Assembly (NCBI GenBank): GCA_963733395.1
Contig: CAVTCZ010000009.1
Location: 166,245 to 230,244 of the forward strand
From: an uncultured Actinomycetota bacterium
GTDB lineage: Bacteria > Actinomycetota > Actinomycetes > S36-B12 > UBA10799
Direction of reading: 5' to 3'
DNA: 64,000 bases
This document shows, piece by piece, positions 30,230 to 60,303 of the stretch (within the stretch, counting starts at the first letter, position 1; each line of letters begins with the position of its first letter). The notes under the pieces are model-generated. The model saw only the letters and a program-made list of their open reading frames with translations, did no database searches and had not been told where the DNA came from. The position numbers and the translations under genes were made by a program.

Positions 30230-31302
30230 GGGTCATGCGAAACGTGGTGCGCGCCGCCGCGGCCGGTGCTGCCGCAGCCACCGCATTGAGCCTGCTGAAT
30301 CTGCGCCACCTGCGCACCCCCACGGGCGCTACGAGCGACGCGCGCATCAGCGTGCTGGTTCCGGCCCGCGACGAGGCGCAACGGATCGGCCCCACGCTGC
30401 GCAGCCTGCAGCGTTTGCGCGGCGTTGCACAGATCCTGGTGCTGGACGACAACTCCAGCGATGGCACCGCCGACCTGGTGCGGGCGGCGGGTCTGGCCCT
30501 GATCGCAGGCACGCAGGAGCCGCCCCCCGGCTGGTTGGGCAAACCCTGGGCCTGCCAACGTCTCGCCGAAGCTGCCACCGGCGACGTACTGGCGTTCATC
30601 GACGCCGACGTCGAACTCGCTGCCGACGCCGCGGTCCAAGCGGCCGGACTACTCGCGGACGTGGACCTCGTGTGTCCCTACCCCCGGCAGGTCACGCACG
30701 GCTGGTTGCAGCGCCTCGTCCAGCCGCTGTTGCAGTGGTCCTGGCTGACGTTCCTGCCACTGCGACTGTCCGAGACCGCACAGCATCCGCTGCTCTCCGC
30801 CGGAAACGGCCAGTTCCTGGTCACGCGCCGGGACGCCTACTTCGACGCCGGTGGCCACGCAGCGGTCCGGGACCAGGTGCTCGAGGACCTGGCACTCGTG
30901 CGCAGATTCAAGGCTGCCGGACATCGGGTGGCGATGGCCGACGGCACCCAGATGGCCACCTGCCACATGTACTCCTCGGACGCGGATCTGGCCGCGGGCT
31001 ACACCAAGTCGCTGCACGCCGCGTTCGGCCCGCCGGTCGTTCTCCTGTTGGGATTCCTCTACGTCGTGCCGCCGGTGGCTGCCCTGCTGGCGCGAGACCG
31101 GCGCACCCGCCTGGCCGGTCTCGCCGGGTACACCGTCGCAGTGGCCGGCCGGGTCGTGGTGGCCCGGCGCACCGGCCAACCGGTTCCCGACGCGGCCGCC
31201 CATCCGGCGTCGATCGTGGCGCTGGCCGGGTTGTACGCGCGCTCAGTCCTGGCGAACCGCCGCGGCACCATCACCTGGCGGGGTCGGGCGCTACCGAGAT
31301 AG
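30226..31302 (+). CDS. GT2 glycosyltransferase (CruC/CrtX-like carotenoid glycosyltransferase candidate)
   Basis: ATG 30226 (ATGA overlap). Contains ISVLVPARDEA, LVLDDNSSDGT and AFIDADV (DxD). It is the last gene of the ybaK-crt operon. Confidence 0.7.
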   Translation: MRVMRNVVRAAAAGAAAATALSLLNLRHLRTPTGATSDARISVLVPARDEAQRIGPTLRSLQRLRGVAQILVLDDNSSDGTADLVRAAGLALIAGTQEPPPGWLGKPWACQRLAEAATGDVLAFIDADVELAADAAVQAAGLLADVDLVCPYPRQVTHGWLQRLVQPLLQWSWLTFLPLRLSETAQHPLLSAGNGQFLVTRRDAYFDAGGHAAVRDQVLEDLALVRRFKAAGHRVAMADGTQMATCHMYSSDADLAAGYTKSLHAAFGPPVVLLLGFLYVVPPVAALLARDRRTRLAGLAGYTVAVAGRVVVARRTGQPVPDAAAHPASIVALAGLYARSVLANRRGTITWRGRALPR

Positions 31303-31364
31303 CCCTGGCGTGCCCATGCGGCATTAGTGGGCGTGCGTCGCTGTTGCCGTGACGGGCTGCCGCC

Positions 31365-31541
31365 GCCGCGGGCGGTCTTTGTGACGACGTTGCGCGCCTG
31401 TCCGGCTGGTTCGTCACGAAGGTGCGCGGTCGAACCGCCCGGCAGCCCACAACGTCGTGACAAACCGCCCTGCGGACCCCACAACATCGTCACGAACGCC
31501 CGTGCCGGCCCGGGAAGTCCGCCCCGACCCCGGCCAGCGGG
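31365..31541 (+). repeat. Family-A intergenic repeat, copy A1 (~177 bp, MITE-like, terminal inverted repeats)
   Basis: Almost identical to 49705..49883 and, in reverse complement, to 44475..44662. Left end is GGGCGGTCTTTGTGACGACGTTG and right end is CAACATCGTCACGAACGCCCG. An internal 32-bp phased unit, ACAACGTCGTGACAAACCGCCC (31449) and ACAACATCGTCACGAACGCCC (31481), is present. Confidence 0.85.
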
Positions 31542-31583
31542 CCAGGCCACACCGCCGACGAGATCGGCGCCACCAGACACGCC

Positions 31584-32315
31584 CTAGTGCCGCACCGCAT
31601 GACCGAACAACACCGGCTGGCCGGTCACCGCCGACCAGTAACGGGTGCCGTACTCCCAGTGCCACCACTCCTGCGGGTGTTGCACGAAGCCCGCCGCGGC
31701 CATGACCGACGCGAGCAGCCGCCGCAGGTCGCGGGCAAGAGCGGGACCGTCGGGCTCGAGCGCCGCCGCGGCGGCTTCCGGCACGAAGGCGTCGAACCGG
31801 GTTCCCATTTCCAGGGGGTATCCGCACCACGTCAGCGTCAGATCGACGGTGCCACCCGTGGCGTGCGGCGGGCAGCGGCGCGGGTCCGCATCCGGGTAGG
31901 CCACGAAACCCGGCTCCAGGTCACCGTCGCGGTAGACCCGGTCGTGCAGGACCGCCTGCAACCGGGGGTCGCGCCATGCGTCCCATACGGCCAAGCCGAA
32001 GGGCGCCGGCAACCGGTCCAGCGCCGCGAGCAACTGTTCCAGGACCACCGGCCGCAGATAGGCACCGGGCACGGCGAAAGGCCACCCCTCGTGCCAGTAG
32101 GCGCCCAGGACACGGATCCGAGGATGCCCCACCGCCGCCAGGTCACTGAGCGGATCGACCGGCGCGTCGGGCAGGTCCGCGAGCTCAGGCAGGTCGACGA
32201 TCGGCGGCAGGCCTTCGGCCCAATCCCCCCGAGTCAAGCCGATCCTGGCCGGATCAACCCCGGCCCACGCATAGTCCGGAAGCTTCTCGGGAATGGCCTG
32301 CACTCCCCCATCCAA
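31584..32315 (-). CDS. M15-family D-alanyl-D-alanine dipeptidase (VanX/DdpX-like)
   Basis: C-terminal ~240 aa of the 518-aa track ORF, with HATGGTVDL (HxxGxxxD) and EWWHWEY (ExxH). The start is uncertain (TTG 32313-32315 or GTG 32301-32303). The upstream part of the ORF is a shadow of the crtD-like gene. Confidence 0.7.
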   Translation of the reverse strand: MDGGVQAIPEKLPDYAWAGVDPARIGLTRGDWAEGLPPIVDLPELADLPDAPVDPLSDLAAVGHPRIRVLGAYWHEGWPFAVPGAYLRPVVLEQLLAALDRLPAPFGLAVWDAWRDPRLQAVLHDRVYRDGDLEPGFVAYPDADPRRCPPHATGGTVDLTLTWCGYPLEMGTRFDAFVPEAAAAALEPDGPALARDLRRLLASVMAAAGFVQHPQEWWHWEYGTRYWSAVTGQPVLFGHAVRH

Positions 32316-44249: not shown

Positions 44250-44462
44250 GTGATCAATGAGATGCTGGATGGCACTGGCGCCACCGCATCGATCGACCTG
44301 CCGGTGGGCGATTCCACCGTGGGGCCCAGTCACGATCACGGCGTTCTGTTGCTCACGCTGGCCTCCGGAACAGCCTGGCGTTTCACCCCCGTGTCGCGCG
44401 TCGGGAGTTGGTTCAAGGGCGGCGCCGATCTCGTCGACGGCCTGGCCCGCAAGTGTCTGTAA
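44250..44462 (+). CDS. Hypothetical small protein (70 aa)
   Basis: The only support is coding-like codon bias (about 80% G/C at third positions by hand count). No recognisable motif. Confidence 0.25.
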   Translation: MINEMLDGTGATASIDLPVGDSTVGPSHDHGVLLLTLASGTAWRFTPVSRVGSWFKGGADLVDGLARKCL

Positions 44463-44474
44463 CCGGGCTGGGGT

Positions 44475-44662
44475 ATGTACCTGCCGGGGTTGGTGGCCGA
44501 CTCCTCGGGCCGGCACGGGGCCGAGTGCTGACGATGTTGCGGGGTCCGACCGGTGCGGTTCGTCACGACATTGCGGGCTGCCGGCCGCGATTCGACCACG
44601 CACCTTCGCTGACAAACCAGCCGGACAGCACGCAACTTCGTCAAACAAGACCGCCCGCGGCG
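44475..44662 (-). repeat. Family-A intergenic repeat, copy A3 (reverse orientation, most diverged)
   Basis: ...GCCGGGGTTGGTGGCCGACTCCTCGGGCCGGCACGG...GACGATGTTGCGGGGTCCG...GTTCGTCACGACATTGCGGGCTGCCGG...TTCGTCAAACAAGACCGCCCGCGG aligns with the reverse complement of A1/A2. Confidence 0.8.
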
Positions 44663-44781
44663 ACAGCCCGTCAAGGCCACAGTGACTCACGACATGTGCC
44701 GTTGGTGCGGGGCTGTCCCGTGGTGAGCAAGGACACGCGTGCAGCCGCTCACGAACCGAACCGGGCGGTTCCAGGCTCCGG

Positions 44782-49542: not shown

Positions 49543-49603
49543 GGGGGTTCTGCGACGTTGTTGCCCTTCGGGCTCAGCGTGTCGGGGTAACAACGTCTCA
49601 GAA
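49543..49603. repeat. Family-B hairpin repeat, copy B2
   Basis: GGGGGTTCTGCGACGTTGTTGCCC...GGGGTAACAACGTCTCAGAAC, 31 nt after the stop of the upstream gene. Related to B1 (38354..38416). Confidence 0.75.
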
Positions 49604-49704
49604 CTCACGGCCGTGGGCCGCCGATGGCTGCGCGGGGCGGCGGCCGAACCTGGCCCTCGACGAGACCCGGTGGCGTGCGTCACGGTTGCCTTGACCGAGC
49701 TCCT

Positions 49705-49883
49705 GCCCGCGGGCGGTCTTTGTGACGATGTTGCGCGCCTGTCCGGCTGGTTTGTCACGAAGGTGCGGGGTCGAACCGCCCGGCAGCCCGCAACGTCGTG
49801 ACAAACCGCCCTGCGGACCCCGCAACATCGTCACAAACCGCCCTGCCGGCCCGAGGAGTCCGCCACCGACCCCGGCCGGCGGG
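49705..49883 (+). repeat. Family-A intergenic repeat, copy A2
   Basis: About a dozen differences from A1 over ~177 nt in my hand alignment. It abuts the glucokinase stop codon (49887). Confidence 0.85.
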
Positions 49884-49886
49884 TAC

Positions 49887-50837
49887 CTAACGGAACCGCG
49901 CCAGGTCCGCGGCCCCGACCAGTCCCGCGGAGTTCCCCAGCTTCGCGATGACGACTTTGGGCAACTGCCGGTGCTCCCGGCCGGACACGGACTCGGTGAA
50001 CGCACGGACCGTCGAGGCCAGCAGCACGTCGCCGGCCTCACTGACACCCCCACCGATGACGAAGCATTCGGGGTCCAGGATCGCCGCAACATCGGCCATG
50101 CCCTGGCCGAGCCAGCGGGAGACGAAGTCGAACGCGGCCAGCGCGACCGGGTCGCCCTCCCGGGCGGCCTTGGTGATGTGCACGCCCTGCACACCCTCCG
50201 GGGTGCCGTCGCCGAGGTCCAGCAAGGTCTCGGCCTCACCGCGGCGTTCGGATGCCAGGTAGCGGGCCTCCCGGACCAGGGCGTTGCCGCTGGCGTACTG
50301 CTCCCAGCAACCCCGGTTCCCGCAACCGCACGGGCGCCCGCCGGGATCCACGTTCAAGTGGCCGAACTCGGCGGCCGCCCCCCAGCGCCCGCGGTACAGG
50401 GTCCCTTCGAGCACGATGCCCGCCCCGATGCCGGTGCCGACGGTGATCGTCACCACGTAGTCGCGATCCTTGCCCGCCCCGAACCGGGACTCCCCCCACG
50501 CCGCCGCGTTCGCGTCGTTCTCGACCACCACGGGCAGGCCCACGACGGACTCCACAGCCATCCGCAACGGCTCGTCCTTCCAGCCCAGGTTCGGCGCGAA
50601 GTTGACCCGGGAACGCTTCTCGTCGACGAAACCCGCCGCTCCGATCCCCACGGCTTCGATGTCGTATTCCTCGCGCAGTTGCAGAATCAGGTCCGCGACC
50701 GTCTGCTCCACCTTCTCGGCGTCGCGCCCACCGGTGGCCACGCGCTGCCGGGCGAGGATCCGACCGCCCTCGTCCACGACCCCCGCGGCGATCTTGGTAC
50801 CCCCGATGTCGATACCCACTGTCAGGCCCATGGCCAA
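49887..50837 (-). CDS. glk: ROK-family glucokinase
   Basis: 316-aa ORF with GIDIGGTKIAAGVV and the ROK zinc motif CGCGNRGCWEQYASG. Confidence 0.88.
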   Translation of the reverse strand: MAMGLTVGIDIGGTKIAAGVVDEGGRILARQRVATGGRDAEKVEQTVADLILQLREEYDIEAVGIGAAGFVDEKRSRVNFAPNLGWKDEPLRMAVESVVGLPVVVENDANAAAWGESRFGAGKDRDYVVTITVGTGIGAGIVLEGTLYRGRWGAAAEFGHLNVDPGGRPCGCGNRGCWEQYASGNALVREARYLASERRGEAETLLDLGDGTPEGVQGVHITKAAREGDPVALAAFDFVSRWLGQGMADVAAILDPECFVIGGGVSEAGDVLLASTVRAFTESVSGREHRQLPKVVIAKLGNSAGLVGAADLARFR

Positions 50838-59864: not shown

Positions 59865-59986
59865 GAGTGTTGCGCGGTTGCGGTCCGCGGACCACGACTG
59901 TTGCACGGTTGTCGGTTCTGCACCCCCAAAACCAGCAACCGCGCAACAGTCGTGGGACGACACCAGCAACCGCGCAACAGTCGTTG
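59865..59986. repeat. Dyad-symmetric array of four copies of a ~20-bp motif (CAACCGCGCAACAGTCGT) with 31-bp phasing
   Basis: Inverted copies are at 59867-59883 and 59894-59915. Direct copies are at 59933-59953 and 59964-59984. The inner pair can form a ~20-bp stem. Confidence 0.85.
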
Positions 59987-60062
59987 CGGGCGGCGGGACC
60001 GCGCCAGGATGGCGACCGTCGGCGACCCGCGGGGCGTGGGCTGCCGGTGTTGGTGAGTGTTC

Positions 60063-60111
60063 GTGCAGAACGTTGACGTTCGGCGAACCGCTGAACGTCA
60101 ACGAACTGCAC
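60063..60111. repeat. 19-bp-stem imperfect hairpin with reshuffled arm fragments downstream
   Basis: GTGCAGAACGTTGACGTTC, loop ggcgaaccgct, then GAACGTCAACGAACTGCAC. CGAACTGCAC and CGTCAACGAAC recur at 60120-60144. Confidence 0.8.
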
Positions 60112-60303
60112 CAACGCCATCGAACTGCACGAGCGTCAACGAACCCGTCCGGTCCGACCCCCGGGCACCCACCGAGGAGTGGTCACCCGAGCCGGCCGGG
60201 GCCGCAGCAGCCTGGACCGGCCACCGGCACTGGCAGGACCCCTGTACCACACCCCGCACCGCACACCGCCAAGATCAGACTCCCCGCTCACATCCGAAGC
60301 GCC

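Follow-up and report, generated by a model that had tools for sequence, protein, structure and literature searches.

The 64,000-nucleotide stretch of DNA analysed here (the window) is C9:166245-230244 of a 3.69-Mb genome assembly (G000, the window genome), which consists of 22 contigs, has a G+C content of 68.6% and is 94% complete. Three copies of a repeat termed family A (A1, A2 and A3) are located in the window, and the convergent gene pairs round them, which were checked with Pfam, are GT2 / M15 dipeptidase, PASTA kinase / DAHP synthase and ArgZ-like / ROK glucokinase. A1 is located between the genes for the GT2 glycosyltransferase and the M15 dipeptidase, and A2 abuts the stop codon of the ROK glucokinase gene at 49887-49889. 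The terminal CTAG sequences of A3 are mutated to CACA and CGGG. The coordinates of these copies, of their parts and of related arrays are summarized in Table 1.

Table 1. Positions of the family A copies, their parts and related arrays (window coordinates unless a contig is given)
Feature	Position	Strand	Basis or remark
A1, full MITE	31324..31587	+	264 bp; consensus 1-284 with small internal deletions; consensus alignment, nhmmer
A1, left terminal inverted repeat TTAGTGGGCGTGCGTC	31324..31339	+	degenerate form of CTAGTGTCGTGCGTC; alignment of copies
A1, internal four-unit nested-palindrome module	31378..31496	+	start-to-start spacing 32/38/32
A1 module, forward unit U1	31378-31394
A1 module, forward unit U2	31410-31426
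A1 module, reverse unit U3	31448-31464
A1 module, reverse unit U4	31480-31496
A1, right end (3' end of IS630 transposase gene and right terminal inverted repeat)	31547..31587	+	homology, consensus 224/229-284
A1, terminal CTAG	31584-31587
TAG stop of the Peptidase_M15 gene (31584-32303, - strand)	31584..31586	-	made by the terminal CTAG of the MITE
A2	49667..49886	+	consensus ~1-216, right end missing
A2 module	49719-49837
A3	44388..44698	-	311 bp; both terminal repeats present
A3 module	44525-44648
GTTGC-family copy in the window	59865-59986
Tandem arrays of G012	C15:12657-13080; C15:24765-25030; C2:98713-99100; C9:33130-33381; C1:297050-297300

Extent and copy number of family A

An earlier description of the window (the sequence-only reading) had presented family A as a MITE-like element of about 177 bp with inverted-repeat ends. 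All three copies are present at the positions and on the strands that it gave. It had estimated that A1 and A2 differ at about a dozen positions, and the alignment over the span that it used contains 9 mismatches and 4 gap columns (92.8% identity); A3 is more diverged, as it had said, with 80-84% identity to A1 and A2. The inverted repeats that it quoted and the unit repeated with 32-bp phasing are also real (D1 and D2 are spaced by 32, and I1 and I2 are found). Its boundaries are too narrow. Conservation begins ~40 bp upstream of the span that it proposed and stops ~50-90 bp downstream of it. The repeats that it took for the ends are internal repeats of a module, and the true termini, which are of the IS630 type, lie ~40-90 bp further out. 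The repeat first noted is the inner part of a ~284-bp non-coding MITE.

To define this MITE, all copies were aligned with 80-nt flanks. The consensus is 284 bp long, starts with CTAGTGTCGTGCGTC and finishes with GACGCGCGACACTAG, and the copies in G000 are 122-304 bp long. They share no common reading frame, and searches for DDE_3 and for IS630 transposases match none of them. Copies were counted as nhmmer hits above 100 bits to a profile built from full-length copies. By this count, the whole-genome check for further copies that had been proposed yields 29 copies on 12 contigs, in addition to ~20 fragments or diverged cores. The exact 16-nt unit of the module occurs 22 times in G000 and its reversed control does not occur, indicating that the copy number is far above chance.

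The pairwise identity of the 29 copies is 87% on average and ranges from 78 to 95%. The left terminal repeat is kept in 21 of them, the right one in 11 and both in 9. CTAG is found at 14 of the 32 intact ends, and CTGG or CCAG, which are transitions inside the TA, at 9 more. The inner units diverge from the consensus by 2-3% and the subterminal parts by 10-16%. The low divergence of the inner units could mean that the module is under selection and that neutral decay is not the whole explanation. In the copy at C19:677634-678146, positions 57-107 are replaced by 330 bp with an array of a second family (the GTTGC type, described below). This copy is an example of one small repeat nested in another.

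Terminal repeats, IS630 parentage and insertion sites

The terminal inverted repeats of the MITE are 15 bp long, CTAGTGTCGYGCGTC, which can be written (CTA)GTGTCGYGCGTC, and sit in CTAG. The left repeat is CTAGTGTCGTGCGTC and the right repeat is the reverse complement of CTAGTGTCGCGCGTC. At the right end, the final ~56 bp of the consensus derive from an IS630-family transposase gene, whose closing codons (the 3' end) they represent. The corresponding DNA of L037, a relative from the same order, reads ...FVWTKTADEILPHAHRQPTSETRH*, and its stop codon is provided by the TAG within the terminal CTAG. An intact insertion sequence of 1127 bp (L042) encodes a 366-aa transposase and has the same inverted repeats as the MITE; its transposase matches the NCBIfam model NF033545 'IS630 family transposase' with 271 bits (cut-off 100). 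A near-complete copy of the IS630 element with a homologous right end is present in G005, a genome of the same genus. When the consensus is compared with these IS630 elements by blastn, positions 224/229-284 align to their right ends with E-values of 1e-8 to 4e-11 and the first 15 nt align to their left ends; the rest of the MITE has no match to them.

Public metagenome contigs were also scanned with the 24-nt right end of the MITE as the pattern, and 26 contigs were obtained. Full-length elements (1111-1130 bp), each encoding a complete transposase, are present on at least 13 of the contigs. The right ends of these elements match by construction, so that their left ends alone provide an independent test. 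The left ends of two of them (L114 and L127) are identical to the MITE consensus at 15 of 15 positions, the consensus form of the left repeat of A1 being the left end of these autonomous elements, and the left ends of the others differ at no more than 3 of 15 positions. The internal 17-nt units are absent from all full-length metagenome IS630 elements found. Three quarters of the length of the MITE, the central module included, are not derived from an insertion sequence, and the central 119-bp module, which contains four 17-nt units at fixed spacing, has no origin in one.

These results indicate that family A is a genuine, previously unannotated, chimeric and non-autonomous transposon of the IS630/Tc1-mariner family (a MITE), with a probability of about 0.85, and we regard this reading as firm. 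The non-autonomous mobile element that the sequence-only reading had listed among its options is supported: the genome contains many copies, orthologous loci in sister species are empty, and no transposase is located in or near the copies. The mechanism of the MITE is ordinary, and its sole unusual trait is that its interior is a second, genus-restricted repeat.

An autonomous partner was searched for in the genome, both as pairs of terminal repeats 1-1.5 kb apart and with DDE_3, and only a remnant was detected. No intact cognate transposase is present in the 94% complete assembly. The sole trace of an IS630-type transposase, at C7:173466-173600, consists of ~45 codons of DDE_3 with an in-frame TGA and has no matching terminal repeats near it. 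Because the transposase is represented only by this remnant and most copies are missing an end, the family is most likely an old, stranded and decaying burst that is not active; with an assembly that is 94% complete, an active state is also compatible with the data. Assemblies of such drafts often lose insertion sequences.

The TA duplication at insertion we infer from the CTAG termini. IS630 itself reportedly prefers CTAG as its target, as Tenzen and coworkers are said to have found in 1990. For the IS630 family, duplication of a TA target is established (PMC2170065). CTAG is rare in G000. It occurs 819 times, as compared with 10,704 times expected from base composition (13-fold under-representation) and 2,708 times by a Markov estimate. 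Outside the elements there are 797 such sites; 54% of them lie between genes and a further 26% coincide with predicted TAG stops (80% together). TAG accounts for 22% of the predicted stop codons in G000. The copies therefore gather at the 3' ends of genes, convergent gaps included, because CTAG survives nearly only in intergenic regions or at TAG stops. A predicted stop codon is held by 8 of the 32 intact element ends, that of the M15 gene among them.

By analogy with the family, a DDE transposase supplied in trans would bind the terminal repeats, excise the element and insert it at a TA dinucleotide, here within CTAG, duplicating the TA. Insertion into the TAG of a C-TAG stop would restore the stop on either strand, because the element starts with G and ends with C. 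The inner module would have been captured as cargo, or would have inserted in the precursor MITE, before the burst.

The sequence-only reading had placed every copy in a convergent gap. This holds for the three copies in the window but not for the genome, in which 10 of the 29 copies are in convergent gaps, 15 in tandem gaps and 3 in divergent gaps, and 1 is inside a predicted gene. This gene context is based on our own iterated hexamer gene caller, which predicts 3599 genes and was checked against nine Pfam-verified window genes only. As compared with the baseline of 16.6% for convergent gaps, the enrichment is modest (binomial p about 0.011-0.015). The exclusive location in convergent gaps is a small-sample impression of a real but modest bias.

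Orthologous sites without the element were found in sister species at both loci tested, as the proposal of an insertion had anticipated. At the A1 locus, a gap of 12-75 bp separates the genes for the GT2 glycosyltransferase and the M15 dipeptidase in the 9 sister genomes in which the locus was read, and G012 has a larger gap of its own. The flanks at this locus are diverged (74-78%), too much for a target duplication to be read. In 5 sister genomes, the two flanks of the copy C19:561885-562113 directly adjoin each other, and in G011 and G002 CTAG is located precisely at the junction, as the stop codon of the right-hand gene. The same gap has received independent insertions of stand-alone arrays in G006, G012 and G008. 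The insertion in G008 (L105; G008:C16, ~242385-242478) is 95 bp long and carries a single inverted pair of a related but distinct unit, TTTTGTCGCGAAGTTGC. Because of this distinct unit, genomes that score zero for the exact unit may contain diverged variants of it.

Repeat finding also detects an outer inverted repeat round A1, at 31317-31334 and 31577-31594. These flanks are mutually complementary, with TGCGGCA and TGCCGCA around the terminal TTAG and CTAG. A1 probably inserted into the loop of a small hairpin that coincided with the M15 stop codon.

The inner four-unit module

The module occupies consensus positions 51-169 and contains four 17-nt units, TTTGTSACGAAGGTGCG, two in forward and two in reverse orientation, with start-to-start spacings of 32/38/32. 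It is also found without IS630 ends. About 12 such stand-alone arrays are present in G000, and many more in G003 (MAG HK-STAS-ACTI-17), G006 ('Ca. Nanopelagicales bacterium BC1.147'), G012 and G002 (an uncultured 'Micrococcales' bin), so that the module occurs without the MITE in 5 of 14 genomes of the genus. The exact 16-nt unit is found 22 times in G000 (see above), 45 times in G003, 118 times in G006 and 19 times in G012. It is not found in five other genomes of the genus and is found once in total across 112 genomes from 37 other genera of the order. The reversed unit is found in none of these genomes. Among 185,579 species scanned, the central hairpin is detected in this genus alone. The module is an independent repeat family in part of the genus.

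In the stand-alone arrays, the units are 82-87% identical, the spacers are 40% identical as compared with a random expectation of 36%, and the spacing stays 32/38/32. The complementarity of opposite spacers is no better within an array than between arrays (p = 0.72), and covariation between paired units is not detected (p = 0.47 and 0.10). At two positions, 6 and 13, there is a consistent difference between inner and outer units. Beside the stand-alone arrays, neither a target duplication nor extra inverted repeats are detected above cross-array controls. Within the 29 MITE copies the spacers are conserved as well, as expected, because the whole element has been transposed. Some arrays of G003 and G006 (L033 and L034) bear flanks and spacers of the MITE type, indicating that the chimera is older than these lineages or has moved between them.

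The arrays are generally not conserved vertically. Nine array loci in G003 and G006 are in synteny with G000, and eight of these are empty in G000. Where arrays are orthologous, the units persist: at the atpC-pduO locus of G003 and G012, the units of the two flanking arrays are retained and the spacers are unrelated. At this locus (L080, G012:C3:238800-241400; L081, G003:C10:307000-309200), a complete array is located on each side of a DUF559-type gene, which is intact in G003 (278 aa) and frameshifted in G012. The corresponding locus of G000 (C5:393100-393485) contains neither the gene nor the arrays. The DUF559-type gene was considered as a partner of the arrays and rejected, since it occurs in array-free genomes and is unlinked to arrays elsewhere. 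A longer parent element bounded by unit pairs was likewise rejected, since G012:C3 and G003:C10 represent one orthologous locus with two complete arrays and an ordinary gene between them. Tandem duplication of whole arrays, two- or threefold and with a period of ~135-160 bp, is seen in G012 and resembles that of BIME clusters (Table 1).

A second family of nested palindromes, the GTTGC family, coexists with the module in G000. Its unit is ~CGCGASTGTTGCGCGGTTGC, present in two forward and two reverse copies with a 31-bp phase. A de novo scan for two forward and two reverse units detects about 50 arrays of the GTTGC type in G000, for example at C1:51255 and C19:592560. This family has the same architecture as the module and shares its genome, and the units are partially similar at ACGAC(T)GTTGCGCG. 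It differs from the module in the sequence of the unit, in the phase (31 bp versus 32 bp) and in that it is not inside an IS630 MITE.

Two other repeats in the window were also observed. A palindromic cluster of GTTCGTGCAG / AACGTTGACGTTC-type units is located at 60050-60140, just downstream of the GTTGC array, and may represent a third unit family. About 65 bp upstream of A2 in its full extent lies the hairpin GCGACGTTGTTGCCC...GGGTAACAACGTCTC (49543-49603), called family B in the sequence-only reading. This hairpin, with arms similar to GACGTTGTTG, a variant of the outer unit from G003 arrays, may be a two-unit relative of the module.

Related repeats and alternative readings

The closest known systems are members of the IS630 family. 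The MITE resembles IS630 of Shigella sonnei and ISY100 of Synechocystis (Tc1/mariner superfamily) in that its terminal repeats and its last ~56 bp are homologous to IS630-family elements of 1.11-1.13 kb. Its termini are located in CTAG, as expected for insertion at a TA target, but it differs from these elements in lacking a transposase. Nezha of cyanobacteria is an IS630-derived MITE, which is short, non-coding and multi-copy, has ends of the IS630 family and is presumably mobilised in trans with TA duplication. Family A, which is likened to Nezha by its form, shares the short, non-coding, multi-copy organisation and the ends of the IS630 family. It differs from Nezha in the host phylum, here Actinomycetota, in carrying a separate repeat family as cargo and in having no intact partner in the assembly.

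Correia elements insert at TA. The Correia elements (CREE) of Neisseria (PMC10969869) resemble family A in being MITEs of ~100-200 bp with inverted ends and an intergenic location, whose transcripts could form long hairpins. They are unrelated to it in sequence, and their autonomous partner is unknown, whereas that of family A is identified here. With respect to the interior, BrickBuilt, a MITE of Porphyromonas gingivalis, contains an internal minisatellite (PMC4596501), and the pneumococcal elements BOX, RUP and SPRITE insert into one another (PMC10969869). Family A is similar to these in that the interior of the MITE is another repeat and in that small elements are nested, as at C19:677634-678146. 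However, its cargo is a four-unit inverted array that is also dispersed in stand-alone form, and not a tandem minisatellite.

REP, REPIN and BIME repeats are mobilised by RAYT transposases (PMC3337134). They are comparable with the inner module only, in that both consist of dispersed extragenic inverted units that fold into a hairpin, form clusters or tandem duplications (in G012) and leave no target duplication. The module differs from REP and REPIN in that its 17-nt unit is not self-complementary, although inverted pairs of it do form hairpins, and in that it always contains four units at a rigid 32/38/32 spacing with unconstrained spacers. RAYT (Y1_Tnp, PF01797) has no match in G000, G003, G006 and G012, and two Y1_Tnp matches are present in G002, a fragmented genome that bears arrays. 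Membership in the RAYT-mobilised REP/REPIN class was rejected, because RAYT is absent from 4 of the 5 array-bearing genomes and the unit is not a palindrome. An attC-like reading of the two-plus-two inverted layout was also set aside as improbable; the copies are scattered through the genome and lack an integrase context.

The conservation pattern of the module hints at its putative recognition by a protein, which we consider possible rather than likely. In the corresponding alternative to a simple transposon, the inner module would be a functional cis-element whose phased sites are bound by a sequence-specific protein, either one of the host or a dedicated transposase or recombinase, and the IS630 ends would be no more than the vehicle that multiplied it in this genome. 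The copies would then matter to the cell or to some other mobile system, beyond being junk. The array of protein-binding sites that the sequence-only reading had listed for family A would thus concern this module and not the entire element, and it gains some indirect support from the conserved units and random spacers. This alternative is doubtful, although several observations are consistent with it. In the stand-alone arrays the units are conserved, the spacers are nearly random and the spacing is kept; pairing covariation is lacking, so that conservation concerns the sequence rather than the structure; inner units differ from outer ones in a consistent manner; the atpC-pduO arrays of G003 and G012 retain units and not spacers; the inner units are the most conserved part of the MITE copies; and a second family with the same geometry and another unit coexists in G000. 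However, a candidate protein was not found, since RAYT is absent from most array-bearing genomes and the DUF559-type gene does not track the arrays. In addition, a selfish element fits better than a host function, because nearly all syntenic array loci of G003 and G006 are empty in G000 and most of the genus is without arrays. The 29 MITE copies share spacers and flanks as well as units, and transposition suffices to explain this without any function. If the module were the cis-site of a dedicated protein, this protein would read four 17-nt sites at a fixed helical phase in the order outer-inner / inner-outer (32/38/32). The arrays would then represent a new actinobacterial class of dispersed repeats with at least two unit 'alleles' (GTGAC and GTTGC), which spreads without target duplication, has units under selection and spacers that randomise, and has hitch-hiked on the IS630 MITE to ~29 extra copies. 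This more detailed proposal is tentative and falls well short of an even chance.

It is much less probable that the repeat is a structured RNA, or a bidirectional terminator or mRNA-stabilising hairpin, selected at the 3' ends of genes, as the sequence-only reading had also suggested. The predicted fold of A1 has a free energy of -135 kcal/mol (z-score -3.2), the stand-alone arrays are predicted to fold at -53 to -88 kcal/mol, and copies are enriched at gene 3' ends and in convergent gaps. However, this location is accounted for by the CTAG target, and the same gaps exist in sister species without the element. A search with Rfam 15 gives no match in the window at the gathering score (best E-value 0.92). 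With UUU before it and AAA after it, the hairpin has the reverse arrangement of an intrinsic terminator, and no terminator-like site (a hairpin with a U-tract) is found on either strand in 31200-31700. Compensatory changes are absent from the unit pairs and from the spacers, so that the proposed covariation check also speaks against this option. Neither a promoter-like nor an IHF-like feature is found in the element. A vertically inherited conserved 3' UTR or intergenic sequence, or a chance similarity, is favoured by the intergenic position and nothing more, and has a negligible probability. It is refuted by the empty orthologous sites at both loci tested and by the homology of the element ends to those of autonomous insertion sequences, and it does not agree with 29 dispersed copies beside unrelated genes.

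As a MITE, family A is a matter of routine annotation, and accounts for ~30 unannotated intergenic blocks in the genome of an uncultured actinobacterium of the activated-sludge type. It calls for caution in that the ends of the element supply several TAG stop codons, and it illustrates how an IS630-type element is steered by the rarity of CTAG towards convergent gaps and stop codons. Its cargo is less routine, and the geometry of this cargo recurs in a second unit family of G000. Should a protein read these arrays, they would constitute a new system of a repeat and its partner in Actinomycetota, and the MITE copies would represent a natural experiment in which ~29 extra sites have been seeded.
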